A program made the position numbers and the translations under genes. Positions 2,450 through 47,735 of a stretch of 64,000 nucleotides of DNA are shown here, one piece after another. The notes beneath the pieces were generated by a model. It was not told the DNA's origin. It saw only the letters and a program-made list of their open reading frames with translations, and searched no databases. Source of the DNA: Leptolyngbyaceae cyanobacterium (lineage in GTDB: Bacteria; Cyanobacteriota; Cyanobacteriia; Phormidesmidales; Phormidesmidaceae); NCBI GenBank assembly GCA_965263355.1, contig CBDHHL010000032.1:512001-576000 (forward strand). The letters run 5' to 3'. Every line of letters begins with the position of its first letter. Position 1 is the stretch's first letter.

Positions 2450-3778
2450 TTAGTTCTCGATCACATCTAAGATAGCTTGATTGCCAAGCGCCTTGTAGTA
2501 AATAATTTCTAAGATAAGGCCGTTAGTATTACCGGTTAAGATGGTGTTTATTTCCTCACTCTCTTCATAGAGACCAGCGTAGAATCCACCTCCGTCAGGA
2601 TCTTGGAGATCTTTTACAGCCTTGATTAGCTTTAAAGTATAAGGTTTTTTGGGAAATAGGTAATACCACCCAAACGCCGCTTTTGTACTAAGCGTGCGTA
2701 GTTCTGGATGGGGCTCATTTTCTTCTGTAATTACAGCCCATGGAGTTCCATTAGCATAAAGAGTGCTATAGAGAAAATGAGGAGCTTGATCAATGTTGTC
2801 TTCAGAGACAGCGGTGAGGTACCCTGTTTCTTTATATCTATTTTCCTGGGCAGCTAGGATGTCTTCTGCATACTCAGCCAGAGTTTCATCCCATCCAAAC
2901 TCAATGGCTTCTAGAATATAAGACTCACTAACTACATAGTTATTAGCGTCAGTTTCTTCAAAATTACGCTGGTCTACAGGGATTTTCACCCCGCTCACAT
3001 CTACCAGTTTCATCGGTTCTGTTTCTAGTGCCTTTGGAACCTCCAATCCCCAAAGCTCATAGCCACGGGCAGCATATTCTTCGTAACCAAGGCGGCCCTC
3101 CTGTACGGGTAAAAGTTTACCATTAGATTTAAAGACCGCACCATAGAGCTGGCCCTCTTTGATAGAACGAGGAAGTTGCCAACCCGACATCAGGTCAGAA
3201 ATCCAATTGTCATATTGGGGATGGCATGTGCGAATGATATGTAGGGCTGTAAGAAAGCGACCAATGTCTAAAGCCGACCAGCCTAATCCTTTTTTGGTGG
3301 GATTGTTTCCATAGTCTACCATCTCTCCGGTAGCACTGTTGTACACCTTATTGGGCAGTGCCCCCTCCACTAGCGGTAGCTCTCCAAGAGAGGTTAAAAA
3401 TTGATTGAGTTGCAGATCAAACTCACCTTGATCAATTAATCCCATCCATCGAACTGCATTCAAGGCCATTAAGTAATTACCTTGATCCCAAAGAGTCCCA
3501 GAGGGAAACTGATTGGCAGAGTTGGTAAATCCGGTTTCTGGTTGCCGATTATTGACAAAGTACTGCCAGGCTGCAGATGCATAGACTTTCTCTTGTTCAG
3601 TTAGAGGAGCGGTTAACTGGCCACAAAGGTTATTGGATGTCTCTTTTGCGGTTGCAGCTTGAGAATCAGACTTGGGACTGTCGATTTCAATGGTGCCACT
3701 AGTACAAGCTGACAAACCACCCATTACTAAAATAATAGCAAATAGACCTTTCAAAATTTGAGATTGATAGAAATTCAT
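2450..3778 (-). CDS. DUF3131 domain lipoprotein (putative glycoside hydrolase, beta-glucanase-like)
   Basis: Lipobox GLSAC after a hydrophobic signal. Motifs AWQYF, TLWDQG, LPNKVY, GWSALDIGR, EGRLGYEEYA, SESYIL, TAVSED, TGNTNGLILE. Confidence 0.85.
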   Translation of the reverse strand: MNFYQSQILKGLFAIILVMGGLSACTSGTIEIDSPKSDSQAATAKETSNNLCGQLTAPLTEQEKVYASAAWQYFVNNRQPETGFTNSANQFPSGTLWDQGNYLMALNAVRWMGLIDQGEFDLQLNQFLTSLGELPLVEGALPNKVYNSATGEMVDYGNNPTKKGLGWSALDIGRFLTALHIIRTCHPQYDNWISDLMSGWQLPRSIKEGQLYGAVFKSNGKLLPVQEGRLGYEEYAARGYELWGLEVPKALETEPMKLVDVSGVKIPVDQRNFEETDANNYVVSESYILEAIEFGWDETLAEYAEDILAAQENRYKETGYLTAVSEDNIDQAPHFLYSTLYANGTPWAVITEENEPHPELRTLSTKAAFGWYYLFPKKPYTLKLIKAVKDLQDPDGGGFYAGLYEESEEINTILTGNTNGLILEIIYYKALGNQAILDVIEN

Positions 3779-3783
3779 ATTTC

Positions 3784-5000
3784 CTAAGAGATATGCGCGA
3801 GTGGGTGACCGTTTTGAGTTTTGTACAACAAACTTTCAAGGATAATGGCGTTAGTATTGACATTGATCGCTTTGTTAGGACCAAGGTCTGGGTTCTCGTA
3901 TCGTCCTGATAGATACCCCTTGTGCTCATCGGCAAGGTTTTGCACTGCTTGTCTGAGGGTTTGGCAGTAATCGTTGTCGGGCAAAAGGCTACTCCAGGCA
4001 AAGGCTGCTTTTGCACTTAGAAAACGCAGATCAGGATGAGTGTTTCCTTTTACATCTGTTGCTGGCCAGGTCTGACCATCAGCATAAACACTGTAATAGA
4101 GAAAATAGGGTTTGCGATCCAGGGCATCTTCGTTTACTACAGTTAGTATGCCCGTGTTAGCATATCGATTTGCTTGAACCTGTAGAAGATTTTCAAGCTG
4201 GGGTTGAGTGGTATCAGGCAACCCTACTTCTATCCCTAAAAGTAAGTATGGATCATTGGTTAGATGATTGCTCGCTCCTGAAGAATTGAGATCGCGCTGA
4301 TCCACTATCAGGTCTACCTGATCAACAGTAACCCCCTGGGTTGGCGGGTTATAAGCGCTTTATCAGCTTCAATTCCCCATAGTTTGAAGCCATAGGCGGC
4401 ATATTGTTCATAACCTAATCGCCCTTCTTGCCAATACTGCAAACCATTACGGCCAGCTCCACTACCCCATAGCCAGCCATCTTTTACAGACTTGTTTAAG
4501 TCATAACGGGTCACGATGGTATTGATGCGATCGCGCAGCTCCGGATAATGGGTTTTAAGTGTGTATAAAGCCACCAGATATCGGCCCAAATCTAACGCAA
4601 ACCAGCCACTTGTCCCGTTGGGGTCAGGGCGATTACTTAATGTCCGCATGGTGGCTGTGTTGGTGCTATAGGCTTTATTCGGTAACCCTGTTGTCGGTAA
4701 GGGTAACTGTTCCAGAGTGCGTAACAGAATCGATAGTTTTTCAACCAATTCTGTTTCAGAAATTAGCCCTAGTTGACGAGCAGCATGGATTCCTAAGAGC
4801 GCACTCCCCTGGTCTCACCAGGTGGCCCAAGGCAGTCCATCAACAGCATTCACCAACCCGGTATCAGGATTCCAGTTATTCTCAAAATAGGTCCACGCTC
4901 GACGAGCCGCTACTCGATCCAGAGAATCTGCCATATGTTCCACACTGTCTAAGGGAAGAGACGGGCTAGCTAACTCAGATATCTCAAGAGATGGAGGAGC
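3784..5000 (-). pseudogene. Decayed third DUF3131 domain of the upstream gene
   Basis: DUF3131 motifs (RRAWTYFENN, LPNKAY, EGRLGYEQYA, NTNAIILE) are interrupted by an in-frame TGA at 4815-4817 (TW*DQG) and a frameshift near 4350 that joins ORFs 4314..4748 and 3784..4305. Confidence 0.85.
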
Positions 5001-32556: not shown

Positions 32557-32688
32557 AGGACTTTGACTGCAAGCCATTACAGTAATTTGTAATTTCTTTA
32601 GGAGCCTGGTTATGGGTTTGCAAATACCCCTCTAGCCAATGGCAGCTGTCGGCCAACAGTTTATCCAATAGTTGAGCCTGATCACCAC

Positions 32689-33333
32689 TCACATCCAAAC
32701 GCCATAACAGTACTGTTTCCACAGGCGGACGGTCTTATCTTCACTGGCCGATGCTAATTTTTGACCATTCGGTGAAAATGCTAGGGAGGTCACAGGGCCT
32801 TCATGGCCGTTTAGGGTAGTTAGCAAGCCCCGTTGTTTCCCTAGCTGCCAGATTTGAATCTGACTATTTTCTAGCCCTACAGCCAAGTGCTGTCCGTTAG
32901 GGCTAAAGGCTACGCTCAGCACTTGAGTATCTTTGAAATCAAATCGATCAAGCTGGATTCCATCTGTGTGCCAGACCCTGGCGCTGCCATCGGCACTGGC
33001 CGATGCAATCATTTGGCCATCATTACTGACAGTAGTATCCCAGATAATCCCTTCATGGGCATCCAGGCGATTGCGCTCTCGGATCCAAAACACAGCTTGC
33101 TGTAAAGCCGTCACCACCAGGTCGTCAGAAAATGATTGATTGGGATTAACCGCCGCTTCATTTTTGAGTGCAATCCCTGCTTTCATCGCTTCTAAAAGGG
33201 CCTCAAATGGCTGGTGGGAGCCAAACAGAGCTTCAGAGGTTTCTGTCTGGGCCAAAATTGTTTGAGACTCAGCGTCCTGTCTTGCTTCCTGAGCAATTTC
33301 CTTTTGTTTATCAGCGCGTGTTCTTTTTTGGTT
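32689..33333 (-). pseudogene. WD40-repeat protein fragment, 5' end cut by IS66
   Basis: The frame is open up to the IS66 end. Only ~3 WD40 repeats (GH...FSPNG..LASASEDKTVRLW) precede an abrupt stop. Confidence 0.8.
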
Positions 33334-33334
33334 G

Positions 33335-34896
33335 GTAACTACTTAGGCTGTGGCAGAGGTGATTGAGGATTTCCAGAGAACAAATCGACAAGCGCGTCCC
33401 ACACATTGTGCCCTTGTTTTCGTAAAGTAGCCAAATAGCCACGAATACGACAGAACTGTTTAGCCCCATCCTCAGATCGGAAGCATCCCGAGATTTTCTG
33501 TTTCAGTTTCATCATGCGGAGGTCACGCTCGGCTTGATTGTTGTCAAAGGGAATCGAGAAATCGTACATAAAGCCGAGTACCGAGACCTTTTGATTACGT
33601 AAGCGCTTCAGTAGGTTAAGCGGGGGTGGACGTTTCGGTCGTCCCCGTTTTTTGGGTTTTGACGGAGGGGGCATTGGGTTTTGGGCAAACCCCTGCTCTA
33701 AAATGGCGTCATATCGGGACTCAAATGCGGCCAAGTCCTCAATCGATACCCTCTGTTTCCCCTGGGCTTTAAGGCTTTCGAGGTGAGTATGAATCGTCAC
33801 CAATAGCAGACTTAGTTGAAAGGCCCACCACTGACCATAACGTTCTAGCATGTACTGCAGTTCTCTCAAATGATGGGCATTACACAGAAAATGCTCACAG
33901 TCATACAGTGGGTAACTCTTCCAACCATCATGCACGGCCTTACCCTCAACCTCTGGTAACACTCCCATCGCCTCCATGGCCACTTGCCCCCGTTTGGGAT
34001 GGACAAAGTAGTAGGTCAACCCATTGGTTGAGGCTACATGCAACCACCACAGACGCTGATTGACCCGCAGACTGGTCTCATCAAAGTGAACAACCTCACT
34101 GGCCTCTATGGCTTGCTTAATCGTTGCCTCTATCGGCCCTAGATGCTCAAAGCACTGGTCACGGGTGGTGTAAAACGTTCCGTCTGAAACGCTCACGTTC
34201 ATTAAGTCCTTCAACACCTCACAGGCTCGATGCGACGGTAACAGTTGTCCCTCCATCAGGTACACCATCATGGCCTTGAGACGAGGACCATACTGCACAA
34301 CCGTGCTGGCCTCAGCAGGAAAGCTCCCTTGAGTGGACTGACCACATTTCGGGCCACGTTTTACCTCGACTTGATGCTCAGTGACCAATGACTCTATCGG
34401 TCGAATGTCAACTACTTGACGAGCTAACACCTCATCGACAGGGACACTCACTAACGACTCTCCACACCCTGAACACACCGTCACCTCATGGGGAGTCACA
34501 AAATCCGGATCGCTGCTCCATTCAAGGGTATGACCGCGATGACCAGGCTGACCACCCGATGACTTGTCGCTTTTACGCCGTAAGCTCTTAGTGCGTTTCC
34601 CAAAGCCATCACCTGACGGTGGTTTATGACTATTTCGACTGGTTTTGCCTAAGCGGCCTTTGAGCTCACTGACTTGGGTTTCTACCTTGGTGAGACGTTC
34701 CATCAACTGAGTCACCAAACTCACCACAGCCTCTTCTCCTTCCGCATACACTGCACGGATCTCTGCTTCGCTCAGCTGAATTGGTGGGTGTTGCTTGCTC
34801 ACTGGTCACCTACCTGGAACCTGACCATCAGTTAGGATATTTCATTTGCATAACAATCTTTGGAAAATCTCTATTTTTTTAAGCCTAAGTAGTTAC
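33335..34896 (-). mobile_element. IS66-family insertion sequence (transposase-only type)
   Basis: Perfect 15-bp terminal IRs GTAACTACTTAGGCT (33335) / AGCCTAAGTAGTTAC (34896), starting with the IS66-typical GTAA. No 8-bp target duplication. Confidence 0.92.
33339..34802 (-). CDS. tnpC: IS66 family transposase (TnpC)
   Basis: SRNSHKPPSGD, GGQPGH, zinc-finger region, HFDET, VHDG, CNAHHLRE, NNQAERDLR...K.SG.FRS. Confidence 0.93.
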   Translation of the reverse strand: MSKQHPPIQLSEAEIRAVYAEGEEAVVSLVTQLMERLTKVETQVSELKGRLGKTSRNSHKPPSGDGFGKRTKSLRRKSDKSSGGQPGHRGHTLEWSSDPDFVTPHEVTVCSGCGESLVSVPVDEVLARQVVDIRPIESLVTEHQVEVKRGPKCGQSTQGSFPAEASTVVQYGPRLKAMMVYLMEGQLLPSHRACEVLKDLMNVSVSDGTFYTTRDQCFEHLGPIEATIKQAIEASEVVHFDETSLRVNQRLWWLHVASTNGLTYYFVHPKRGQVAMEAMGVLPEVEGKAVHDGWKSYPLYDCEHFLCNAHHLRELQYMLERYGQWWAFQLSLLLVTIHTHLESLKAQGKQRVSIEDLAAFESRYDAILEQGFAQNPMPPPSKPKKRGRPKRPPPLNLLKRLRNQKVSVLGFMYDFSIPFDNNQAERDLRMMKLKQKISGCFRSEDGAKQFCRIRGYLATLRKQGHNVWDALVDLFSGNPQSPLPQPK

Positions 34897-34991
34897 CATC
34901 TACCAAAGTATCGATGAGGTATTAGATGCTATTCATCAAAAAATACTTGCTATTCAAAGTTGACAAGCTATTGTCAACGAATGTCTTGCAC

Positions 34992-35034
34992 GGAGGGGGC
35001 TTCGGGCGTTAGCGCTAGGTGTCGAGCCCCCTCC
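34992..35034. repeat. GC-rich REP-like hairpin
   Basis: Perfect 10-bp stem ggagggggct / agccccctcc. Confidence 0.5.
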
Positions 35035-35200
35035 CTGACGGTGCCCCTTGCTTTACGCTTTAGTGCATGCCCGGAGGGCTTTAGGGGAATCCTTGGTGGA
35101 GTATCTTGAAACTATTGGTTTTCAAGGGTTTCAGCTATTCTCTCTGACCTTATGTATACACCGTAGCCTGGGAGGAACATTGGGGGGCACACACAGCCCA

Positions 35201-35890
35201 CTAAACCAAATCAGGATCTATCCCCAACGCCCTTAACTTCTCCGCCAGTCGGTCCGCCCGCGCCTTTTCTTGTTCTACTCTTTCCTCGGGTGTTCTCAAC
35301 CGTTGCCCAGTCTCGTTATACCAATACAACCATTCTCGCTCTCGGCCCAAGTAAGTTCCTCGTTCTCGGCCCAGACCCAACCCAATTTTAGGCAACCAAA
35401 CCGGATTTCCAGATAATGCTTCATATTCACCATCCACTAACTGATAAATCTCCAGGGGCTGACGCTTACGACGCGGGTGCCCATCTGGCAGATACACCGC
35501 ATAGTAGTCAACCTCCAACTCTGCATACAGTTTTTTCTTGCGTTCGTACTCACCACCATAGGTTTTCGAAACCACTTCTAAAGCCAGTGTTGGAGAAATA
35601 TTATCCTCTTCCCACATCACATAGCTCAGTCGCCCCCCTTCGCCAATGAATCGTTCTACACCCAAACTCAAAAAACCATCCGGCACCACCGCTGGCGCAC
35701 TGGGGTCAAAATAAATCCCCATATCTACCCCAAAAAACCAATCCTCACGCTCTGGCCAGATCATCGCCAAAATCGCTTCGAGTAAATTGGGAATCAAATT
35801 CTGTAACTCATTATCCACAGGCGTATCATCCGAGTCCGGTAACTCAGCAGAGGAGGGTAAGCATTGCTTTGGGTCAAACTTTAAAACCAT
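35201..35890 (-). CDS. Uma2 (DUF820) family putative endonuclease
   Basis: LPSSAELPDSDDTPVDNELQ, PDGF, LEVVS, and a C-terminal 'LAEKLRALGIDPD'. Confidence 0.92.
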   Translation of the reverse strand: MVLKFDPKQCLPSSAELPDSDDTPVDNELQNLIPNLLEAILAMIWPEREDWFFGVDMGIYFDPSAPAVVPDGFLSLGVERFIGEGGRLSYVMWEEDNISPTLALEVVSKTYGGEYERKKKLYAELEVDYYAVYLPDGHPRRKRQPLEIYQLVDGEYEALSGNPVWLPKIGLGLGRERGTYLGREREWLYWYNETGQRLRTPEERVEQEKARADRLAEKLRALGIDPDLV

Positions 35891-35990
35891 GGCTACCGCA
35901 AGCTAGACCAGTACAACTATTCTAGCAGTTGGCTGATGTAGATGATAAATCATGGCCAACTTGAAACCTGTAGATTCTCTGTTTAATCGT

Positions 35991-36435
35991 TTAGCCTCGA
36001 ATAACAACCACATCCCGTTTGCCAGACGTCATCGCTAACTCTGTTGTGGTGCGTTCTGCAATTGGCCCAATATTAGAACGCTGATCAAAAATCACTAGCC
36101 AACCCAAGCTTAACCCTAAACCTGCCAGATAACGATCCAACTGCTCTAATCCCTGACTAATCGGATCCGGTCGCCCCTCTCGCCACACCTTCAACTCCAT
36201 CGCCAGTGTCGTTGTTCCGTATCGTAAACATAGGTCCATCCGGTCTGACCCAATGGCATATTCTCTCTCTAGTGTGCCGCCACCTTCGACTCCGCTCAGG
36301 TCGAGACCATTCACCACTCGATGTAAAAACGCCATCAATACTAGATGGGGCGCAATCTCATGGTATGGAGCACTTTTTAACAAAGGTTGTCCATGTTGTC
36401 GCCAAAAGCTAAGAAACGCCTGTAATAGCGTCGCA
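35991..36435 (-). pseudogene. C-terminal fragment of an AAA-ATPase/PD-(D/E)XK nuclease-like protein
   Basis: 'FLSFWRQHGQPLLKSAPYHEIAPHLVLMAFLHRVVNG...EREYAIGSDRMDL...ELKVWR...QLDRY'. No ATPase part and no proper start upstream. Confidence 0.75.
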
Positions 36436-36470
36436 ATCTATATACCTTTAAAACCGACTCAGGATCTAAA

Positions 36471-37316
36471 CTAGGACCCCCAAACTGAATATCGGCAAAC
36501 ACCATTGGAGTGTAACCCTGTCTGGTTTAAGGCAAGCTTCTGATCAAATGCATTGTTTTTAGTCTTAAAACGTTGATACAGTTTTGTTTCGTTCAGCGTT
36601 AGAGTCAGGCGGTCGTCTTCCCAAGAAAGCTGACCAGCACCACCCCGCCCCAGATTATTGCAGTAATGGTAAATCTTACGGCAAAAGAGCTTCGTTGGGC
36701 CACATTCATAGAGCGATAGCTTACCGTAGGCATCAAAGCTCATATAGCTCATCTGATAGCTTTTATTCCAGGTATTTACTTGAAGCGCATCTACATGGTC
36801 AATAAAATAGCCATTAAACGGCATGAGTCCGACAGTTAGGGTTATTAGCAGAGAGAATGTAACAATGCTATTAACCTTGACCTGGTGAGGAAACTGAGAA
36901 ATTGCAACTATAATCCACAAAATATCAAGGGCAACAATCAAAAAAAATAGTCGTATAGGACCATGAAATCCACCACCGTGTAGAAAGGATAGGGGCAGTG
37001 ACAAAGCCATGCCAACTACGGCCAAAAGAGCAAAACCCCAGATTTTAAGCCATCGCCATCGGACCTGCTTCAAGGACGTAACCGGAAAGATAAAACTGGC
37101 ACAGCAAATGAATAACAGCAAGATCCAAAATCCAAAAAAGAAAAGGCCATGGAGAAATACAGCAACTGGATAAGGTCCTGGTAAAATGCCATTGATAAAA
37201 AGCCAATGCCATGGCAAGTATGCAAAGAACAATAATAGCCCTGGCTGACCAACTCTTTGAAGCAAGGTTTGTCTGTTCCAGTGGTGATAGAAATATCGTA
37301 ATAGCTGCATTATCAA
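36471..37316 (-). CDS. Hypothetical integral membrane protein
   Basis: 281-aa ORF with ~5 hydrophobic helices followed by a Cys-containing soluble tail. Confidence 0.7.
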   Translation of the reverse strand: MIMQLLRYFYHHWNRQTLLQRVGQPGLLLFFAYLPWHWLFINGILPGPYPVAVFLHGLFFFGFWILLLFICCASFIFPVTSLKQVRWRWLKIWGFALLAVVGMALSLPLSFLHGGGFHGPIRLFFLIVALDILWIIVAISQFPHQVKVNSIVTFSLLITLTVGLMPFNGYFIDHVDALQVNTWNKSYQMSYMSFDAYGKLSLYECGPTKLFCRKIYHYCNNLGRGGAGQLSWEDDRLTLTLNETKLYQRFKTKNNAFDQKLALNQTGLHSNGVCRYSVWGS

Positions 37317-37415
37317 GGGGGACGAGGATGATGGATATATATCCTTGAATTCTTGATGGGGCTATCTAATTTCGAAAAAAATCGACAAGTTTACCCAAAC
37401 CATATAATCCTGGCA

Positions 37416-37480
37416 GCCTCCTAAATCCTCGAACTCTGCTGACTTTGAGTTCCGAAGCCCCCAGAATTTTGGGTGGGGAC
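37416..37480. repeat. Degenerate cyanobacterial intergenic palindromic repeat (CCCCCAG/AA-type)
   Basis: cctaaatcctc...gactttga...aagcccccagaatttt gggtgggg is the reverse-oriented relative of the element at 62761-62869. Confidence 0.5.
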
Positions 37481-37580
37481 CTTTGCACGAGTGTCATATT
37501 TAAAAAGTTCTTGTTTCTTGTGTAAATTACTTTGCCTGCCTACTGATCCTGTAACATAGCCAGCATTCTGAAGGCCCTCT

Positions 37581-38666
37581 TTAGTCCTCTCTTTTCTTTG
37601 CCAAAATCTCTTCAATCCATACTTGATGCTTTTCATTCTCAAAGCGTTTCAAATAGGCTAGGGCAATTTGTCCCACCGCTGGGTTCTCTTCAATCGCGTC
37701 TAACAGTCTGTGAGTTGTACGTTGTAATATCGCTCGCTCAATCTGTTGATGGGTTGCCACCGGTACCAGGATGGCGGCCAAAACGACCCCGATCCCGGCT
37801 GGAATCATTGGCATCAACCAGCCCAGTAAAAATCCTCCATAGACACCACTGGTTAACCCGGTCAGCAACGCCATGATCAATAACGCCACCTCAAGGGTTG
37901 CTCTCGCCAATAGATGCCCGCCACACCGCCCGCCGTGGTCCAGACCAAAATCCAGACAATCTCCTGCCATTCCTGCCAGCTTTTGAATAAAGGCCGACCG
38001 TCAAGGGCTGAGCGCAACAACATACTAACGGTATTGGCATGGACCGTTACCCCAGCCATGGAAACGGTTTCGCGGGTGGTATAGGGGGTAATCAACACAT
38101 TGTTGACGGTGGAGGCGACGGAGCCGATTAAGACGATGCGATCGCGAATCACCTCCTCAGGCACCTCTCCATTCAGCACCTGGGTGAGAGAAAAAGTGGG
38201 AAACTGCGATCGCACCCTCACATAGTTCAGCATCACCTGATAACCATTGGCATCGGCCCGAATATAGCTGCCCTCATAGGGGCTTAATGGCTTCAGCATG
38301 GCCTGCCCCAAACGCACCGCATTGGCTGGACGGTTAACTGCCTCAAAAGCAATCCCTTCCTGTTCTAAATAGGCCAGCACCAGCTTGGATGAAAAGCTAA
38401 ACAATAGGGTGCCCGGTTCCGGCTCGATGGACAACAACGCCCGTCGGATAGACCCATCATTCTATATCTGCTTGCTCTAGCCGTGCCATGGTTTTGACAC
38501 TCAAGCTAGACTTACCCATCTGGCGGGCCGTCAGAATATAGCAAAACTCCCCCCGACAGACCGCATCATAGAGCGCACTATCCGCCTGCCGTTGCACATA
38601 GCTAAGAGCCTGGGTGGGCAAACTCCCCCCCACTTGATACTGAAATCCAGGCTGTTGTTCCGTCAT
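37581..38666 (-). pseudogene. AAA_35-CHASE2 protein with a large internal deletion and a frameshift
   Basis: N-terminus YQVGGSLP...YVQRQAD...RQMGKSSL (Walker A) abuts mid-CHASE2 'DGSIRRALL' at ~38458. It continues with RDRIVLIG, GVTVHAN and TMs, with a further frameshift near 37890. Confidence 0.8.
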
Positions 38667-38681
38667 ATCTATTGTTCTAAA

Positions 38682-41600
38682 TTAGACGCTTCGATAGCGA
38701 TAGGTCATATACCCCACCGCACCACCGGTAAGCCCCCAAGCCATTAGTGCCGGTACCCAAGGTATCCAAATAGCTGACCACACCATAGAACCATAACAAG
38801 CGATGGTTAAAACGCCGATCGAGCCAGCGCTGGCGAGCAACAATGGCCGCAGTCGCACACATCGCCAAAAGATCAAGCCGCCAACACCAGACCACAGTAA
38901 AATCCAGCCCGATTCTTCCACAAATGACCACCAGCGGATGAGAGGGCGTTCCTCTAAGGCCGCATTGATCAGTTGGCTAATCATTTGTCCATGGACATAA
39001 ACTCCAGGAATAGAATCGCCATAAGGGGTATTGAAATCATCGGAGTTGCGATCGCTAAAATCTGTATAGCCAATTAGGACAATGCGATCGCGAATCAGCG
39101 CAGGATCAACCTTGTCCTGAATGACAGCTTCTAAAGAAACCTGCTGAGCAAAATCCTTTAGCCGAGAACCCCGTCCTTGGGACTCTGGATCGTCATAGGT
39201 GCGAAAGTTGATCAGAGTTTGATAGTCTATCCAACTACTCCAGCCTAGATTTTCGGTCATCGCACTATAGGCAGTGCCGTTACTATCAATATTGGGTACT
39301 ACAACAGTATTAAAGGAAATAACACCGACTGTTTCTGCATCGCTAGTATTTTCATAGGTAATCCCTTCGGTCTCAAGATACGTCTTAGCCAACAACAAAC
39401 TAAAGGACTCCTCAGTGAGACAAGAACTATCGCCACTAACCTGCTGAGTTAAATAGTGACGGCGCACAATGTTGCCACCATCCTGGAGGAAATTAGCAAA
39501 ACCAACCCGAGTCTCGGGCATTTCGTTGCCGATATCGCCAACCTGTTCGTTAGCCTGTTTGTCAGCTGTCTGACAAATACCAAACAAATTATCCATCCAA
39601 GCCAAATCGTTGGCCAAAGCCCCCTTAGCCGGAAAATCACGGAAAAAGTCTAACCCAATCAAACGAGCATCATGGCGATTGAGAACTCTAATAGCCTCTG
39701 AAAGTGCATTCTCAGGAATCGTACCAATACCAGGGGTATAACGACCATCAATCATCTGTTGCCGTAGCCACTCGCCACTGGGGAAATCTACCTTAACAAT
39801 TAGCAGCCGCTCATCCTGTTCAGTTTCATTGGGCCGCCACCGCAGGAACTGGTCATAAGCGCGAGTTTCTAGGGGCTGAAAACCACCCAATAGTCTGATG
39901 ACAGAAACTGCTAAGGCACTGACTACCGTCGCTAATGCCACGGATCGAGCTTTGATTTTCTTAAATGGCAAGGCCTGACTGGCCTGAATATAAGCTTTTT
40001 GCAGGGCAGTAACCGATGGTGTTTTGTCCTGGGCCTGCTCTAACCAACGGACTGATTCTGCCAGGTCATTCCCCCGTAGTAAAAAACTCTCATCCCGCTG
40101 GGCAGCGTCCCATTCAGCGGCTTTGACTAACAGGCGTGTGTGCGATCGCACATGATGCGGATCGCTTTCCAAGGTGCGAAACAACTCGCCAAAGTTCACC
40201 AGAAAGTCACCGTCATGTCGTCGAAAATCACTCCAGGGTAATGACTCGATCCCTTCCGGCAGTGTAGATTTCACCACAGCCCGATAGATCACCGGTAAGA
40301 TACGTTTTTGCTGGGACCGGGCATAGGCTAGCTGATCTAGACAGGCCTGACACCGGACAGCACTGGGCGACAAAATAAACAGAACAGTTTCAGCATTATC
40401 AATCAGCAGGTGAGTATCGTCTAGTCGGTCAGTCTCACCTGCCGAACCGTCCGGTGATAACCAGGCACTTTTGCCTTGAACTAACAACGTTTCATTAAGC
40501 CGATGAGAAAAATCATAATCATCAATATGGTGAATAAAAAAGACCCCCAGGGTTTGATCGGGAGACTGCCTTTGACTGGCATCCAAAAACGCTAGCTGTA
40601 GGGGCAATGCGCCGTTTGGCTGACGATTCTTAGCGGTTTGAGCCCAGGCTAAATAGGTATCCTGTATCTGACGCTGTAGGAGCAAACTCGGGTTTTGTTG
40701 TTGTCGTTCCCACTTAAGTGCTCGCACCAAAAGACGTTTGTGTTGATTATGGTATGAAGCCTCTCTCTGGATCGCCTGCAACAGCTCTGCCATATCTTTT
40801 TCTAAATCGATAGAGGCTTGATTGTCAGTGAGATTAATAAATTGAATCTTACGAATGGTTTCTGGTATCAGTGCTAAATTCACATCCTCCACCAGCATAG
40901 GAATCACCCGTTTGTTTAGGTCTAGCGCTTGATCAATTTCCTGTTGACAATAAACTGAGGCAAGGGATGCCTGGGAAATCAGATAGACAACATTGTCAGC
41001 CTCTTCCAGACCCCGCTGGATAGCAACTTCAAAGTCTTCACCCATACGGATATCCACCGTACTGGTCCAAACTGTCACACCAGCTTGTAGTAAGTGATAG
41101 CGAACAATTTCCTTTGTGGTTAAATCTTCTTCGGCACAGGAGATAAAGACCTGGGTCATGCCACCGTCGGCAGCCTTGATACTTTCTGTAATAAACTCTG
41201 CTTGCACCAGGTTCGGTTTACAGGGCAGTTGCTCCTTAGTAAATTCCGTCTGCAGCCAAGTTTGCGCCCGCAGTCGTTCCTCTCCCATCAGTAAGTAAGT
41301 GGCTTGACGTTGGTGACGCTCCCAGGCGAGGGCACTAATCAAGAGTTCAGTGTGCTGATGGACATAGTCTTCATGCCGATGACACAGCTCTATCAGTCCA
41401 TTAATGGCAGTGTCTAAATCATCGATGCCTGGACGGGCGTTGATCCAATTGATCCGACCAATGTCAGGGGGCATATTGGGGAAACTCGAATGTTTCCCCT
41501 TGGCTTTATAGATTTTCCAATGATCCGGACTGTCTGAAGGATTGCGAGCTTTCCAGGTGGAATAGCCAATTTCTTCCACCTGCAAAATGGGGATAATTCG

Positions 41601-43166
41601 CTTGTTGTATTTCAGTGCCAGGGAAATTTCCTTCGCACAGTAGGGCGAGTTAATGGAGTGAGGGCTGATGATAAATATAAAATTGTGGCTTTTTTCGATG
41701 CCGTCATTGATTTGTGCCTGGAAGTCTACGCCTAGGGGAATATCATTTTGATCAAACCAGACCTGAAACCCGTGGCGATTGAGCTGTTGACACAGATCAG
41801 TGGCAAAGGCTTTACTATCGATGCGACCATAGGAAATAAAAGCATCATAGAACTGATTAATACCTTGACTGGCCTGGATATAGGCGGTGTGCAAATCGGT
41901 GGGAGAACTGCCCGATGGACTGGGTTCCGATAGCCAGGCTTGGGCCATGGCAAAGGCATCGGACCTGAGTAAAAACTTGCGATCGCGATCCTGACGTTCC
42001 CAGGCCAATGCCTTTACCAACAGACGTTTATGTTGGTCCACATAGTCTGCCGAGGTCCTGAGAGTGCGAATAAGCTTATCTATAGCCTGATCAAAGTGAC
42101 TATCAGACGCTAGGGACGAAAAATCAATAAACTGCAACGCGCGCAAGTCGGTGGGCAATGTTGCCATATCCATGGACTGCACCAGCAGTGGAATGATCCG
42201 CTTATGGTAGCGACGAGCATAGGCGCATTCCTGTTGACAATAGCTTGACGCTAACGCATTAGGAGACAGCAATAAAACAATATTGTCGGTTTTTTCAATA
42301 CCCCGATTGATAGCGACCTGAAAGTCTTCAGCGGTGGGAATGTCTACGGTATTTACCCAAACCGTTACCCCCTCACGCATCATGCGCTTACGGACCTTCT
42401 CCTGAATGGCCATATCCTCTTTACTGTAGGATATAAAAACTTGAGTCATCTGGTCATTGGCAGCCTTCAGACTTTCCGTAATAAATTCGCACTGTAAGTC
42501 AGTGGGGATACAGGGCGGTTGTTTGTCTTTAAAGCGAATGTTTAACCATTGTGCTGCCTTCGCCAATTTCTCAGTATCTGTTAACAAATAGTTGGCCTGA
42601 CGCTGCTGACGCTGCCAGCTGAGAGATTGTAGCAACAGCTGTGTATGTTGGTGCACATAGGGGTGATATTGGGTCAGCATGGTTTGTAATCCAGCCATGC
42701 CTGTCTCAAAGTTATCTATCCCCTCACGCAAGTACACCCAGTCAATTTTTCGAATCTCAGGGTGCATATTGGGAAAACTGCTGTGCATTCCCTTTTCTTG
42801 GAGGGCATGCCAGTCGCCTGTATCGGCATCCGGAGTAAGCTGTTGCCAGGTTTCGTAGCTGATTTCCTCAATATGCAACAGTGGAATAATGCGCTTACTA
42901 TGGGTCAGCGCTAGCTCGATTTCCCGAGTACAGTAAGGGGAATTAACAGAATAGGGAGAAATAATAAAGAGAAAATTATCTGCATTCTCAATGGCATCCT
43001 CAATCTGATTTTGATACCCCATCCCCTGAGGACTATGCTCAAAATCAACCCAGACCTCTAACCCTGCCTCAACGAGGTGATCATAGATCTGCTTGGTAAA
43101 CAAACGGCTGTCTGTCCTGCCATAAGAAATAAAGACATCCTGCAGAAAAGAAGGAGGGGGTGTCAT
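38682..43166 (-). CDS. Five-TIR-domain / CHASE2 membrane protein
   Basis: TIR starts DVFISYGR, QVFISYSK, DAFISYGR, QVFISCAE and GVFFIHH. These are followed by a TM, CHASE2 (IGLDFFRD, DGGNIVRR, RDRIVLIG, PGVYVHG) and three C-terminal TMs. Confidence 0.9.
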   Translation of the reverse strand: MTPPPSFLQDVFISYGRTDSRLFTKQIYDHLVEAGLEVWVDFEHSPQGMGYQNQIEDAIENADNFLFIISPYSVNSPYCTREIELALTHSKRIIPLLHIEEISYETWQQLTPDADTGDWHALQEKGMHSSFPNMHPEIRKIDWVYLREGIDNFETGMAGLQTMLTQYHPYVHQHTQLLLQSLSWQRQQRQANYLLTDTEKLAKAAQWLNIRFKDKQPPCIPTDLQCEFITESLKAANDQMTQVFISYSKEDMAIQEKVRKRMMREGVTVWVNTVDIPTAEDFQVAINRGIEKTDNIVLLLSPNALASSYCQQECAYARRYHKRIIPLLVQSMDMATLPTDLRALQFIDFSSLASDSHFDQAIDKLIRTLRTSADYVDQHKRLLVKALAWERQDRDRKFLLRSDAFAMAQAWLSEPSPSGSSPTDLHTAYIQASQGINQFYDAFISYGRIDSKAFATDLCQQLNRHGFQVWFDQNDIPLGVDFQAQINDGIEKSHNFIFIISPHSINSPYCAKEISLALKYNKRIIPILQVEEIGYSTWKARNPSDSPDHWKIYKAKGKHSSFPNMPPDIGRINWINARPGIDDLDTAINGLIELCHRHEDYVHQHTELLISALAWERHQRQATYLLMGEERLRAQTWLQTEFTKEQLPCKPNLVQAEFITESIKAADGGMTQVFISCAEEDLTTKEIVRYHLLQAGVTVWTSTVDIRMGEDFEVAIQRGLEEADNVVYLISQASLASVYCQQEIDQALDLNKRVIPMLVEDVNLALIPETIRKIQFINLTDNQASIDLEKDMAELLQAIQREASYHNQHKRLLVRALKWERQQQNPSLLLQRQIQDTYLAWAQTAKNRQPNGALPLQLAFLDASQRQSPDQTLGVFFIHHIDDYDFSHRLNETLLVQGKSAWLSPDGSAGETDRLDDTHLLIDNAETVLFILSPSAVRCQACLDQLAYARSQQKRILPVIYRAVVKSTLPEGIESLPWSDFRRHDGDFLVNFGELFRTLESDPHHVRSHTRLLVKAAEWDAAQRDESFLLRGNDLAESVRWLEQAQDKTPSVTALQKAYIQASQALPFKKIKARSVALATVVSALAVSVIRLLGGFQPLETRAYDQFLRWRPNETEQDERLLIVKVDFPSGEWLRQQMIDGRYTPGIGTIPENALSEAIRVLNRHDARLIGLDFFRDFPAKGALANDLAWMDNLFGICQTADKQANEQVGDIGNEMPETRVGFANFLQDGGNIVRRHYLTQQVSGDSSCLTEESFSLLLAKTYLETEGITYENTSDAETVGVISFNTVVVPNIDSNGTAYSAMTENLGWSSWIDYQTLINFRTYDDPESQGRGSRLKDFAQQVSLEAVIQDKVDPALIRDRIVLIGYTDFSDRNSDDFNTPYGDSIPGVYVHGQMISQLINAALEERPLIRWWSFVEESGWILLWSGVGGLIFWRCVRLRPLLLASAGSIGVLTIACYGSMVWSAIWIPWVPALMAWGLTGGAVGYMTYRYRSV

Positions 43167-43209
43167 AAATATTAGATGCCTACTAAGGGCCTAGACTGGA
43201 TAATGAGGC

Positions 43210-44403
43210 TCAGAAACCATAGCTCCAACGGGCACGATATCCCCGTGCATCGATATGGGTAAAGACGGATGCGCTTGCCAGTCCGCCGCGATCTCGCCAC
43301 CAAGGTTCTAACTTCCGGTTTACGTCCGGTGGAGAAACACCCTGAACGACAAAATCAACCGCATCTCCAGAAAGATGACGAGAACGACTAGCGCCACCTG
43401 CTCGACGGTTTGAAGCGGGATCACGATACCAGGAGTTAACCGTAATGGGACGTCCTCCCAAATAATCCCGTACTTCTTCCATAACCTCGGCAATTTTGAT
43501 AATACCGTCGACTACAGTGTCATCCACAGGAATACGATTGCCATTTTTTGTTGCTTCGGCCCAGCTAAAGTGACCATCCGTCAGGATCGGATCGCCTAGA
43601 TAAACCGTCCCTAGTTTGGGGACGGTAATGGATCGACCGCGATCCCGTTCAGCGATCTTCGTTTCTGGTTCAACCGGCGGGTCCTGGGGCTTGTTGTCAG
43701 CGTCCGTACCCTCTAACTGAATATGCTGGGCAAAAACATACCAATCAACGCGATCATTTTGCCCCATCAGCATCCCGTCGGGGATCCGGACTTTTACATG
43801 GTTTGACTTGTCCGGTTCATCACTGAGTAACTGCAACCGCGTACCTGCACTGACTAATATTTTGTCAGTGTCCGCCAGTTGAAAGCTCTGTTTTGGACTC
43901 ACCTTAAATAAGGTATCTGCCAATACAAGCATCTCGGTGGACCCTTTGGGATTACCGAGATCAATCAACTGCTGCGACTGCATATAGCGCATAATAGCTG
44001 CCGCACCGATGCGAGGCGTTTTTGGCTTGGCTATGTTAGTGCCCCCCCAAACCCAAGTAGACGCTTGCCCAGCACCGTCTCTAAACCCGTGCCATAGGTC
44101 AACGCCCCACAACAGCGCCCCTAGGGTGCGGGTCTTCGCCTGATGGAATTTTTTGGCAATCAGAGCATCGATTACCTGACGTTCAAACTGAGCGGGCTCA
44201 CGAAAGTTCCACTCGCTATAGTGCAAAATTCCCACAAACCACCAGGGCACACTAGTGGCTTTTTCCACAGCTTCGTAGTGCGATCGCAATTGCACCATGC
44301 GACCCACAATTCCCCTCACGGTAGGCTCCGCATCTGGCAGCAGCTCACAACCCTCAAATGCTGACTTATACTCTGGCTCAAGTTTTTTTAGAGTCAAATC
44401 CAT
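43210..44403 (-). CDS. Peptidase M15 (Zn D-Ala-D-Ala carboxypeptidase-like) with N-terminal lysozyme-like region
   Basis: C-terminal SWYRDP..NR..GGASRSRHLSGDAVDF...FTHIDARG. N-terminal YEAVEKATSVPWWFVGILHYSE resembles lysozyme-family proteins. Confidence 0.85.
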   Translation of the reverse strand: MDLTLKKLEPEYKSAFEGCELLPDAEPTVRGIVGRMVQLRSHYEAVEKATSVPWWFVGILHYSEWNFREPAQFERQVIDALIAKKFHQAKTRTLGALLWGVDLWHGFRDGAGQASTWVWGGTNIAKPKTPRIGAAAIMRYMQSQQLIDLGNPKGSTEMLVLADTLFKVSPKQSFQLADTDKILVSAGTRLQLLSDEPDKSNHVKVRIPDGMLMGQNDRVDWYVFAQHIQLEGTDADNKPQDPPVEPETKIAERDRGRSITVPKLGTVYLGDPILTDGHFSWAEATKNGNRIPVDDTVVDGIIKIAEVMEEVRDYLGGRPITVNSWYRDPASNRRAGGASRSRHLSGDAVDFVVQGVSPPDVNRKLEPWWRDRGGLASASVFTHIDARGYRARWSYGF

Positions 44404-44807
44404 GGAGCTAGTAGATGAAACAACAGAGATAAATAGCAGCCAAGAGAACTTAAATAGAATCCACAGGAGGTGCTACAAGCAATAAGCAATTGAATACCAG
44501 CAATCTCACTGACAACAACCAACGCTAAGACTCATTTAATTACCTACATCAGCCCATACCTTTAGCAATAGTTACAAAGCCTAGCCAATGCAATGAACCG
44601 ATAACATTTATAGAAAATTTATGCTAGCTCAAATAATAATGAAGAATTTATACTTTAGCGATGGTGCCCAGATAAAACCAACAAGATAAATTGTTCGTAA
44701 GTTAATTTTTATAAATCTAAGAGTTAGTTTACAAAGCTAAAGCGTGTACCTTTGAGTTGCGTTTTAGCTAAAAAGCTTGTCCTTGACTCGCATCTAATCA
44801 AAATAAA

Positions 44808-46337
44808 ATGGCCAAGAAAAGTTCTTACAACGATTATCTTAAGCAAACCCTAGGAGGGTTAATTGATAGGCTTGATATTTCAGAGTTACGTAAGGAATTT
44901 CTCAAAAATCGCTGGCTAGATCAGGTGATGTGGCTAGAAGGAAAGGCCACTAAAGAGCGGGATAGACACTACAAGCTGCGTTTGGTAACTATCATTGGCG
45001 GTGTGATTGTTCCAGTCATGGTAGGCCTAAACCTTGAAGGTCCGCTCGAAAAGCAGCTTAAGTATGCCGCCCTTGGGCTAAGTACAATAGTGGCTATTTC
45101 CGCTGCTGTCGAAGAATTCTTTTTGCCGAGTGAGAAGTACCGCAATTATCGTAGTACGGCAGAAAGCATGAAAATTGAGGGTTGGCAGTTTATGCAATTG
45201 GCAGGCCCTTATCGTAAATTCAAGGTTCATTCAGACGCCTATAAGATATTTGCCCAACGGGTTGAAGCCTATATTCAAAAAGATGTAGAAGGGTTCATTG
45301 CCCGTTTAGAAGAGAAACAGGAGGAAAGTAAGGAGGACGCTGATGAGGCGGCCAATAACGTTGAACAGACCCTTATGAGTCTCAATCAACAGTTAGAGGA
45401 AGAACGGGCGCAGCGTTTGGAGTTAGAGCGTGCACGTTTGGCTGAACAACAAGCTAGCAGTCCATCACCGACCCTGGATGATGGAGGTGGTTATTCTGGT
45501 TCCCTGATGGATATTCAGATGCCTCCATCTACTGATGAGGGAGATTTTGAGGAAAGCTTACCCCAGGAAAGCCGCCTGACTGAACCGTTGGCTGGTGTGC
45601 AGTCCCTGATGTCATCACAACCAACGGCTAGCCGAACCCGTGAAGTTTCCAGTAGAACAATTAAGACATCTAGTAGCCTCCCTCCCTTAGGTCAATATGC
45701 CCTGGAATGGGAGGAAACGGTTGACTTTAACGCGCTAAAAACAATTTTGACTGAGCAGAATAGTACTGGCACCCAGACCAATGGAGGGGCTAGTGGCGCT
45801 GAACCTCAGTTAACTACACCTGATGAAGTTTCTCAAATCTTGGAATGTCCGTTAGAAGACTGCAAAGTCTATCTGCCAGGCGTTTTACTGGCGATGCAAA
45901 AGTACGACATCTATGACAAGTCCGTATTGATTGGTCTATTAGCCACCATTCGCATTGAGACTGGCGGTTTCAAACCGGTCCATGAATGGGGAGGAGAAAG
46001 CTACTGGAAACGCTACGAAGATCGAGCAGATTTGGGTAATGTTAACCCTGGTGATGGCGTGAAATACCATGGCCGTGGCTACATTCAGCTTACAGGACGG
46101 GCTAATTACCATGACTATGGTAAGAAGCTGGGTGTGGATCTTGAAAATAATCCAGATTTAGCCATGGATCCTGAAATATCAGCTCAAGTTCTGGCCTGCT
46201 ACTTCAAAGAGCGTGGTGTGGCAACGGCGGCCCGTGAAAACGATTGGCGACGCGTACGCAAGTTAGTTAATGGTGGTTACCACGGCTGGGATGTGTTTTC
46301 AAGATATGTTGAGCGGGCTCAGGCTCGATTGGCATAA
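44808..46337 (+). CDS. SLATT (DUF4231) 2TM domain fused to a GH19 lysozyme/chitinase domain
   Basis: N-terminal RWLDQV.W...TM...TM...YRSTAESMKIEGWQFMQLAGPY. Coiled coil and low-complexity linker. C-terminal IETGG..VHE, YHGRGYIQLTGRANY, VNGG. Confidence 0.85.
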   Translation: MAKKSSYNDYLKQTLGGLIDRLDISELRKEFLKNRWLDQVMWLEGKATKERDRHYKLRLVTIIGGVIVPVMVGLNLEGPLEKQLKYAALGLSTIVAISAAVEEFFLPSEKYRNYRSTAESMKIEGWQFMQLAGPYRKFKVHSDAYKIFAQRVEAYIQKDVEGFIARLEEKQEESKEDADEAANNVEQTLMSLNQQLEEERAQRLELERARLAEQQASSPSPTLDDGGGYSGSLMDIQMPPSTDEGDFEESLPQESRLTEPLAGVQSLMSSQPTASRTREVSSRTIKTSSSLPPLGQYALEWEETVDFNALKTILTEQNSTGTQTNGGASGAEPQLTTPDEVSQILECPLEDCKVYLPGVLLAMQKYDIYDKSVLIGLLATIRIETGGFKPVHEWGGESYWKRYEDRADLGNVNPGDGVKYHGRGYIQLTGRANYHDYGKKLGVDLENNPDLAMDPEISAQVLACYFKERGVATAARENDWRRVRKLVNGGYHGWDVFSRYVERAQARLA

Positions 46338-46662
46338 ACTTGACATAAATCCAAGAAGATGTTATTAGCCAAGATGTTACGAGGCCCGAGTTTGATTGCA
46401 TCAATAACTAATGCTCTAAAGGCAACGATAGATTATTAGTCAAATGCGAGCCAGGCATAGCAACTGCATAGTGCTTGTGGTGCTTGTAACGGTATTGGAT
46501 TCTATGATTTTGTGCGTATACTTTGTTCACACCCCTAACTAAAATTAGATCGCTTTATCTATAAATTTGGACGGATTCTACAGGATAAGGGTATTTTGGG
46601 GTGTAAGTAAGTTAAACAATCCACCCAGACCTGTCGGTCACCTTTGTTAAGAGAGATACGAA

Positions 46663-47454
46663 ATGCCCAAAACTTCAGCTGACGAACTTGTTGAACATAG
46701 GTTTTCTAATGGGCAGCTGGCCAAAATACTCAAGGTGGCTGACAGTACTGGTTATAAAAAAGCATTATCAATTGTTGGCTTACAGGGGCCGACACCTACA
46801 TTGTTGGTGATTGGTGGAGCTAGCAATATGACGCCTGAAAGTCAGGCAAAGCTAATTCAATTCTTTAATAATGCATTAGCAATCTTGTCAGAAAGATTAG
46901 GGATTACCGTATTAGACGGTGGCACTGATGCTGGGGTGATCCATATGATGGGGCAAGCGCGTTATCACGTCAGCGGTCAGTTTAATCTTGTTGGAGTTGC
47001 CCCGCTAAATAGGGTTATTTTTCCAGTTGATGAGATGCCTTTACCAGCCTCGGATGATGAAAACTATCCTCCAGTAGAATTGGAACCCCATCACACCCAC
47101 TTTTTTCTAGTTCCTGGTGAAAACTGGGGTAGTGAGTCGCGATGGCTAGCAAGATTTTCGTCAGTTTTGGCCGGACATTTTCCCTCCATGACTTTACTAA
47201 TTAATGGAGGTCAGGTATCTCTCAAGGACTTGAAGCTCAATTTAGAGTTTGGTAGGCAAGTTACGATCATCGCTGGCAGTGGTCGTTTAGCAGATGCGGT
47301 GGCCGATACTATTAGCGGTGTAGCCCCCTCTGAAGATAAAACGATCCAGCATTTAGTAAACACCTATTATCCCAGCCAGTTGTCGGTCTTTAATCTCCTA
47401 TCAAGTTCATTAGATGACTTAAAGGCTCAATTGGACATCTATTTTGATTGCTAA
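46663..47454 (+). CDS. SLOG superfamily protein, TRPM-like (LSDAT) type
   Basis: VIGGA, VLDGGTDAGVIHMMG, LEPHHTHFFLVPG..WGSE, INGG, AGSGRLAD motifs. Confidence 0.85.
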   Translation: MPKTSADELVEHRFSNGQLAKILKVADSTGYKKALSIVGLQGPTPTLLVIGGASNMTPESQAKLIQFFNNALAILSERLGITVLDGGTDAGVIHMMGQARYHVSGQFNLVGVAPLNRVIFPVDEMPLPASDDENYPPVELEPHHTHFFLVPGENWGSESRWLARFSSVLAGHFPSMTLLINGGQVSLKDLKLNLEFGRQVTIIAGSGRLADAVADTISGVAPSEDKTIQHLVNTYYPSQLSVFNLLSSSLDDLKAQLDIYFDC

Positions 47455-47735
47455 TGGTTAGCAGATGGCTAGAGATTGCAGCCATTGGCAAATCTAGCTG
47501 GTTTAGCAATAGCATTCTCTGCCAGGGGAGCAGCAGTAATTGTTAAGAATTAGAATCAGCAATTGGCAAGGTATGCTAAAGTTCTATGGCAATGAATTGC
47601 TAAGCTTAGTGACAATCAGTTTTCGGTACGATACGCTCACAGTTCAACTCGACCAGTTCAACTCGACTTCGATTTGATTACTAGAGGAGGGATCTCCCGT
47701 ATAACTCGTCGCATATTTAATCTAGGAGATTCTCT

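Follow-up and report, generated by a model that had tools for sequence, protein, structure and literature searches.

A five-TIR CHASE2 receptor of a Leptolyngbyaceae cyanobacterium belongs to a family of TIR arrays genomically coupled to LSDAT and SLATT genes

What can a membrane receptor do when its only cytoplasmic output is a row of TIR domains? The question is raised by a gene at 38682..43166 (minus strand) of a 64,000-nucleotide stretch of DNA from a Leptolyngbyaceae cyanobacterium, referred to here as the window. The original prediction for this gene described five tandem TIRs in an A-B-A-B-degenerate pattern ahead of CHASE2, with neither kinase nor cyclase output, and proposed a pre-concatenated TIR filament under an extracytoplasmic sensor in a Toll-like arrangement. 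The open reading frame (ORF), Pfam matches, module alignment, and AlphaFold2 model all bear out this architecture, including the TIRs as sole output. Two features go beyond that prediction: the coupling of the array to LSDAT and SLATT genes, and a flanking TPS/CHAT/DUF928 cassette. Owing to the LSDAT/SLATT coupling, the finding is more informative than at first reading, and these partners together with the cassette lead us to favor Thoeris-like messenger signaling over Toll-like scaffolding.

The ORF encodes 1494 amino acids with 0 internal stops. A Pfam scan assigned five TIR_2 stretches (E 7e-109) and a CHASE2 domain at aa 1084-1431 (E 3.6e-48), with ThsB_TIR as a secondary match only. Above the Pfam cut-off, only TIR families and CHASE2 were recovered, and no kinase, cyclase, or CHAT domain was found in the receptor. 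All modules lie on the minus strand and end in a connector. Module A1 (aa 9-240; 42447..43142) is an A-type TIR with a two-helix insert of ~28 residues and the pair Y78/E82, and represents an extra, faster-drifting copy. It is followed by the B-type module B2 (aa 241-439; 41850..42446; Y309/E313) and by module A3 (aa 440-670; 41157..41849), the most conserved TIR of the receptor, which carries FISYGR.DS, WFDQNDIP, Y509/E513, and the insert at ~aa 529-566. Module B4 (aa 671-872; 40551..41156) is again B-type with Y739/E743, and module C5 (aa 873-1068; 39963..40550) is a degenerate TIR with A941/Q945, whose connector shares homology with the end region of an nSTAND1 module. The sequence motifs quoted for these TIRs in the original prediction are all present, except that MTQVFIS..ED has three variable letters rather than two. 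The A-type insert (after betaD; window 41469-41582 and 42762-42875) has invariant W, R, P, W, and G residues and lies close to the surface through which TIRs pair. No hydrophobic segment was found within aa 1-1068. Beyond them, a first predicted transmembrane (TM) helix (about aa 1073-1092; 39891..39950, minus) leads into the predicted periplasmic CHASE2 domain (38874..39917, minus), after which three further TM helices are predicted at the C-terminus (~aa 1415-1492; 38691..38924, minus; model and hydrophobic segments). This part matches the TM-CHASE2-three TM module of CHASE2 receptors, and no output domain was found beyond the last TM helix by ORF, Pfam, or a model of aa 440-1494.

The AlphaFold2 model of aa 1-1068, built from 51 sequences, is ordered throughout the array, with a predicted local distance difference test score (pLDDT) of 88.4 and a predicted TM-score (pTM) of 0.75. 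It displays five TIR folds with three helices after each and the two-helix insert in the A type; neither this model nor the Pfam scan contains a P-loop STAND NTPase domain. Confidence is lowest at the N-terminus and then in the A-type BB loops (aa 44-47 and 476-480). In the second model (aa 440-1494), one helix ahead of CHASE2 and three behind it coincide with the hydrophobic segments. The helical spacer H..LL..AL.WE expected after each TIR is present after all five, more loosely after the first and the last. The proposed filament may or may not form: the array is ordered, but it is heterotypic, with helical connectors of ~70 residues between three different TIR types, and the BB loops of the A type are of low confidence. 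A complex prediction with two A3-B4 copies and nicotinamide adenine dinucleotide (NAD) scored 0.00 and was used neither way. Foldseek searches with the A3-to-end model gave, among the matches listed, TIR-type structures and one dehydrogenase, and none for CHASE2 or connector, neither of which was folded alone. The region 34870-47600 is reproduced by single contigs of two public runs with 1-2 substitutions and 0 gaps; both runs stem from one sample of one study, possibly the source of the window itself. Promoter and terminator predictions were no more frequent than chance would give (14 vs 14.1 and 7 vs 9.4).

How did five TIRs come to stand in one protein? The alignment confirms the proposed pairing, with identities of 49% between A1 and A3 (BLAST E 5e-85) and 43% between B2 and B4 (E 1e-54), compared to 22-36% for the other pairs. 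At the DNA level B2 and B4 are only 66% similar, over 265 nt, which shows that the A-B duplication is old. The nearest full-length relatives are 63-79% identical and occur at 18 loci of Leptothoe/Adonisia/Leptolyngbya-type cyanobacteria. Among the best 120 of 968 homologues, A-B-C-CHASE2 forms the largest class (55), followed by A-B-A-B-C-CHASE2 (40); the rest comprise 5 N-terminally partial proteins, 2 truncated ones, and 18 with 5-7 TIRs and a long tail, identified as WD40 from a precomputed Pfam column. Arrays with 3, 5, 6, and 7 TIRs therefore exist, and in the genome searches WD40 forms with three TIRs predominate. In a FastTree phylogeny of 185 B modules (midpoint root, no formal clade test), every B2 of the five-TIR proteins falls in one clade (0.997), whose members are 40 CHASE2 proteins, 14 proteins without CHASE2 (2 of them truncated), and 2 partial ones; B4 is intermixed with the B modules of three-TIR proteins. 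Duplication of a two-TIR unit, as predicted, agrees with this clade and with the array sizes, and a recent internal duplication is ruled out by the low DNA identity and the single old clade. Four three-TIR proteins have their A module inside the A1 clade of the five-TIR lineage (0.997) and appear to have arisen by deletion of B2-A3. Taken together, the tree and the family forms indicate that the A-B-C triad is the unit, that the A-B pair was duplicated once, and that sensors were swapped later; five TIRs are therefore not a required number, and the five-fold count would be incidental.

In many proteins such an array is joined to WD40 in place of CHASE2, so that outside sensing is one of two inputs. 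The A module has over 1000 non-redundant protein matches with E below 1e-30. The distribution of the array is patchy, with 10/301 genomes in a phylum sample. This count is from the A-module search; a long-query search gave 12 genomes, of which G153 and G036 were found via CHASE2 only and were dropped. Genome G001 carries five array genes. Up to 9 A-module matches occur in other genomes, and locus L152 has three A-B-C-WD40 genes in tandem. In another locus (L016:8001-13890) the orthologue is interrupted within TIR5 by a transposase gene, and a record labeled Gemmatimonadetes (L024) contains an A-B-C-WD40 gene, so that the triad may occur outside cyanobacteria.

Are these TIRs enzymes? The receptor has Glu at positions 82, 313, 513, and 743 and Gln at 945, as predicted from its CLDQ; YxxxE, in place of WxxxE, is present in TIR1-4 and absent from TIR5. 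Across the homologues, Glu is retained in 170/181 A, 165/186 B, and 75/121 C modules, and of 119 proteins that have an A module, 118 retain an A-type Glu, the exception being a fragment. By position in the five-TIR CHASE2 proteins, it is found in 32/39 A1, 37/40 B2, 40/40 A3, 33/40 B4, and 21/40 C5 modules. With 75/121 C modules keeping it, the loss in TIR5 is lineage-specific. All 40 A3 modules (40/40) have the full YxxxE. Conservation across 50 homologues peaks in the A-type TIR core, with 40% of its columns at least 95% invariant compared to 15-16% for B, C, and CHASE2, and its betaA, BB-loop, and YxxxE residues are near-invariant. In A3, the Glu aligns with that of BtTir (7uxr, WTEYE). An aromatic residue at the position of the WxxxE Trp (W 9, Y 2, F 1 of 12) is described as marking producers of cyclic ADP-ribose (cADPR), and the TIR active site as spanning two TIRs (10.1101/2022.05.07.491051). 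The A and B TIRs are thus likely to have catalytic potential, with A3 as the predicted main catalytic domain. Closest in fold are Hydra TRR-2 (Z 19.4), SARM1 (18.2), MyD88 (17.5), and MAL (15.8).

The connectors point to the ancestry of the repeat unit. A hidden Markov model of 488 spacers, searched against 961 ORFs of the loci, gave one match outside the array proteins and their fragments: aa 814-860 (iE 0.002) of a CHAT-nSTAND1-CHASE2 protein (locus L070) whose nSTAND1 spans aa 460-821. BLAST aligned the last spacer and CHASE2 of the receptor continuously to this protein from aa 797 on, with 34% identity. From this one example we infer that the repeat unit may be a TIR plus a post-STAND connector from which the NTPase has gone, and the receptors look like NTPase-less NLR-like proteins.

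Upstream of the receptor, 1.6-4.3 kb away, lie two genes that could supply the missing downstream steps. The first (44808..46337, plus) encodes a SLATT (DUF4231/SLATT_1; 99.8 bits, cut-off 41) membrane protein with a C-terminal GH19 domain and is a candidate effector. The second (46663..47454, plus; Pfam and profile) encodes an LSDAT, or TRPM-type SLOG, protein and is a candidate messenger sensor. Both occur at each of the 13 orthologous loci whose flank is long enough, all from one clade. The window LSDAT keeps every invariant column of a 16-sequence alignment, and the top PDB match of its profile is TRPM2 MHR1/2 (E 3e-20). Of the residues reported to contact ADP-ribose (ADPR) in TRPM2, namely Y295, R358, and R302 (PMC6759353), R358 corresponds to the invariant Arg of GSGR and Y295 to an invariant Trp. 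LSDAT-SLATT fusions occur at L137 and L143, and patatin, similar to CBASS phospholipases, is the alternative neighbor in some relatives. Burroughs et al. reportedly named LSDAT and SLATT in 2015 and predicted their pairing, and may already mention TIR neighbors. PADLOC gave no match for either gene. The C-terminal hydrolases of SLATT proteins (window 44808-46337; L074, L138, L122) vary among GH19, C39 plus GH19, and phage lysozyme, in a holin-endolysin-like manner. TPR-S proteins, one with SLATT domains, stand beside LSDAT or TIR-array genes at L156:4154-7420, L130:5171-7531, and L069:15509-17509.

The association extends across genomes. LSDAT was found in 9/10 array genomes and 13/291 others of the phylum sample, in 27/30 and 16/171 in the order of genome G003, and in 43/43 and 12/77 in the order of G001. 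The three samples overlap; pooled as distinct genomes, 73/77 array genomes have LSDAT. An A match and LSDAT are within 8 kb of each other in 9/27 genomes of the G003 order (chance ~0.17) and in 12/43 of the G001 order, with further adjacent cases in G209, G237, and G429. About ten LSDAT-array gene orders are seen (L065, L066, L074, L078, L080, L137, L138, L140, L141, L142, L144, and the window). At L138, TPS-ShlB-CHAT-ABC/CHASE2-DUF928-LSDAT-SLATT run on one strand; LSDAT-patatin-ABC/WD40 is the order at L078, L139, and L141; and at L137 an LSDAT-SLATT fusion adjoins ABC/WD40. In the G003 order, 7 of the 10 arrays adjacent to LSDAT have WD40 and one is a two-module fragment, which indicates that LSDAT goes with the TIR array rather than with CHASE2. 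At three loci (L127, L131, and L132, e.g. L131:2303-8244), an LSDAT-SLATT pair converges on pncB-nadD-nrtR-nadE with no TIR gene in the stretch, and at L120 LSDAT follows an NAD(P)H-hydrate repair gene. At L136:6749-7980, a truncated LSDAT runs into a CHASE2 C-terminal half followed by DUF928, possibly the scar of an LSDAT-array-CHASE2 deletion.

On the other side of the receptor, orthologous loci contain a second set of genes. In these loci the M15 peptidase and receptor genes are succeeded by one for a secreted TPR protein (15/18), then by TPS-CHAT (11/18, several loci ending early) and ABC-WD40, and the locus is syntenic beside carB across the clade. The window has the M15 gene (43210..44403, minus; Pfam) 43 bp upstream of the receptor, as do 17/18 orthologous loci, the remaining one being without flank. 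In the 11 three-TIR CHASE2 loci fetched, DUF928 then follows in 10 and a CHAT gene is in the stretch in 8. Gene labels for L138-L153 come from BLAST to Pfam-checked references; the L138 gene labeled M15 has a BLAST match only, and Pfam detected no M15 domain in it. Non-TIR CHAT-CHASE2 genes occupy the same slot at L070 and L071. In the clade of the receptor the secreted TPR protein takes the DUF928 position; homology between the two was considered and not established (weak N-terminal likeness, 35% probability).

In the window this downstream part has decayed. Next to the receptor, a 68-codon AAA_35-like N-terminal fragment (38463..38666, minus; E 2.5e-4, below cut-off) ends in a stop and forms the start of a broken gene, continued by the C-terminal half of a second CHASE2 with its TM tail in two frames (37581..38482, minus). 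The broken gene stands where orthologues carry the TPR and TPS-CHAT genes, which are missing within the window. Further on, the remnant of an A-B-C-WD40 paralogue (32576..33342, minus; 68-69% identical to the WD40 part of orthologues) is cut upstream by an IS66 transposase (33339-34802). The IS66 contig has about twice the depth of its flanks in two runs, with loose ends, suggesting several copies. Elsewhere in the window, a DUF3131 gene cluster (2450-7948) includes one gene apparently split into two ORFs (3784-4748).

These elements can be assembled into a pathway. A cue would engage CHASE2 from outside; its likely origin is the DUF928/TPS/CHAT cassette, found next to most relatives and lost at the window locus. 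Arrays would then cluster, or a shift would pass through the STAND-derived connectors, and NAD+ would be cleaved, mainly by the A-type TIR, to give an ADP-ribose-type messenger. This messenger would bind the neighboring TRPM2-like LSDAT, which would switch on the SLATT membrane effector (or patatin in some relatives), the outcome probably being membrane damage or cell death in an immune or stress setting. Such TIR-to-SLOG and TIR-to-SLATT signaling is established for Thoeris types I and VII (10.64898/2025.12.03.692087). We give receptor-gated messenger signaling of this kind an even chance of being correct. Its extension to a whole family of filamentous cyanobacteria, as NTPase-less NLR-like proteins in which a heterotypic TIR triad with CHASE2 (outside-in) or WD40 (inside) makes a messenger read by LSDAT and gating SLATT-hydrolase effectors, is more tentative.

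Several observations weigh against messenger signaling. The Glu alone is no proof of activity, since non-enzymatic TIRs of Toll-like receptors (TLR1/2/6/15) carry it too, so the catalytic claim of the original prediction stands as likely potential; B-type TIRs mostly lack the betaB Asp (present in 19/185); and with MyD88 and MAL scoring near SARM1, the modeled fold does not separate enzyme from scaffold. TRPM2 R302 is unmatched in LSDAT, and the window LSDAT and SLATT genes are transcribed away from the receptor. The sampled genomes are related, so that Fisher p-values overstate independence, and 10/12 adjacent cases in the G001 order are from the receptor's own clade. LSDAT is non-adjacent in most genomes that have both (18/27 and 31/43; many assemblies are fragmented), is nearby in only 3/11 of the fetched ABC-CHASE2 loci, and occurs without an A-module match in 16/43 and 12/55 genomes. 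It also stands beside other single- or double-TIR genes (L121, L134, L135, L143, L156) and, at the three loci named above, beside NAD-salvage genes, and may therefore serve other TIRs. No known defense system was recognized among the neighbors scanned.

Could the array itself be the effector, as the original prediction implied, depleting NAD+ directly through pre-positioned TIRs with CHASE2 as the switch, and LSDAT and SLATT mere neighbors in a shared conflict locus? The TIR effectors of CBASS, Pycsar, and pAgo act in this way (10.64898/2025.12.03.692087), four TIRs of the receptor retain the Glu, the modeled array is ordered (pTM 0.75), and arrays range from 3 to 7 repeats, as though the dose were being tuned. 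However, the presence of LSDAT in 73/77 array genomes and its repeated adjacency in different orders would be left unexplained, and the array consists of heterotypic modules with connectors in between; we therefore regard direct depletion as unlikely. We place lower still a non-enzymatic, Toll/MyD88-like scaffold recruiting the A-B-C-WD40 paralogue or a CHAT protease by TIR-TIR contacts. It would account for the fold likeness to MyD88 (Z 17.5) and MAL (Z 15.8), the Glu of TLR TIRs, which head the sequence matches after BtTir, the five array genes of G001, and the ABC-WD40 paralogue and TPS-CHAT downstream in orthologous loci. However, the near-invariant betaA, BB-loop, and YxxxE residues of the A TIR and the coupling to a nucleotide-binding SLOG gene suit an enzyme better, and the CHAT partner, being fused to a TPS export domain, is probably not cytoplasmic.

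Two further possibilities were weighed. In one, the same chemistry would serve a physiological and not an immune role, the messenger controlling cell-wall remodeling or filament breakage through SLATT-linked wall hydrolases. SLATT partners do bear GH19, C39, or phage-lysozyme domains, the gene next to the receptor encodes an M15 peptidase, the locus, syntenic beside carB, is no obvious mobile island, and LSDAT-SLATT lies by pncB-nadD-nrtR-nadE in three genomes. Nevertheless, a patchy distribution (10/301), paralogue expansion, frequent decay, and interchangeable effectors including patatin are traits of conflict systems, and a physiological role of this kind seems improbable, more so than the scaffold. 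The receptor may finally be an orphaned relic in the window strain, compatible with the other readings: the window lacks the TPR and TPS-CHAT genes, and the WD40 paralogue and second CHASE2 gene are broken. We rate this lowest, as the receptor ORF is intact and 72-79% identical to orthologues, the M15, SLATT, and LSDAT genes are intact as well, and the partners may lie elsewhere in the genome, outside the window.

If receptor-gated messenger signaling holds, what would it add? In the literature covered, bacterial TIR signaling is intracellular and follows phage entry. A membrane receptor with TIR output and a TRPM2-type SLOG would extend nucleotide immune signaling to surface cues in multicellular bacteria, as a pathway from surface receptor to second messenger to lysis, and would provide the first ligand source for LSDAT. 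The ligand of a prokaryotic LSDAT, which bears on what the TRPM N-terminal domain bound ancestrally, can be tested with small soluble proteins, as can the division of catalytic and partner roles among heterotypic tandem TIRs.

Which known systems does the receptor resemble? TIR-array CHASE2 or WD40 proteins, or their link to LSDAT, were not found described in the literature searched; one account has CHASE2 only with an EACC2-caspase (PMC8195603), and another describes one CHASE2/DUF928/WD40 cluster (PMC5587647). Like Toll-like receptors and SARM1, the receptor combines an outside sensor with inside TIRs, Hydra TRR-2, SARM1, and MyD88 being nearest in TIR fold, and as in Toll-like receptors the cytoplasmic TIR is the sole output, so that this part of the Toll-like comparison stands. 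The rest does not, since the receptor has no leucine-rich repeats, four predicted TM helices compared to one, and multiple, N-terminal TIRs. With the NAD+-cleaving TIRs of SARM1/AbTir type it shares the TIR fold and, in TIR1-4, the Glu in alphaC with an aromatic residue four positions before. Bacterial TIR-STAND-WD40 proteins have the same effector-connector-sensor layout, and the connector matches an nSTAND1 end, but the array is without an NTPase domain and repeats the TIR-connector unit itself. The cyanobacterial CHASE2 cassette (TPS exoprotein, ShlB, TPR-CHAT, CHAT-CHASE2 or CHAT-nSTAND1-CHASE2, DUF928) offers the same TM-CHASE2-3TM module in the same gene slot, 34% identical in the L070 protein from the last connector on, with the cytoplasmic CHAT/nSTAND1 part replaced here by the TIR array.

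The partner gene shares with TRPM2 MHR1/2 and Pfam LSDAT_prok the GGA, GG, and GSGR loops, the R358 equivalent, and an aromatic residue at Y295; unlike TRPM2, it encodes a stand-alone bacterial protein with no channel and with R302 unmatched. The closest comparison overall is with Thoeris, in which type I is SIR2-SLOG, type III has several TIR proteins with a SLOG effector, and type VII has a SLATT effector and cADPR. CHASE, WD40, LSDAT, and TRPM are absent from the main text of a 2025 survey of Thoeris, whose figures and supplement, with 29 putative types, could include a related configuration (10.64898/2025.12.03.692087). As in Thoeris, a TIR with a catalytic motif stands beside SLOG and SLATT genes, and the TIR gene is linked to a separate gene for a nucleotide-sensing candidate effector (within 4.3 kb and divergent in the window); the top NCBIfam match is ThcB4 of type III, and PADLOC gives ThsB matches. 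However, the ThcB4 score of 135.9 is below the cut-off of 220, the TIRs of the array stand in heterotypic tandem on a four-TM receptor or a WD40 protein whereas those of Thoeris are small and free, and the partner SLOG is a stand-alone TRPM-type LSDAT. By analogy, we would class the array as Thoeris-like and not as a member of Thoeris.

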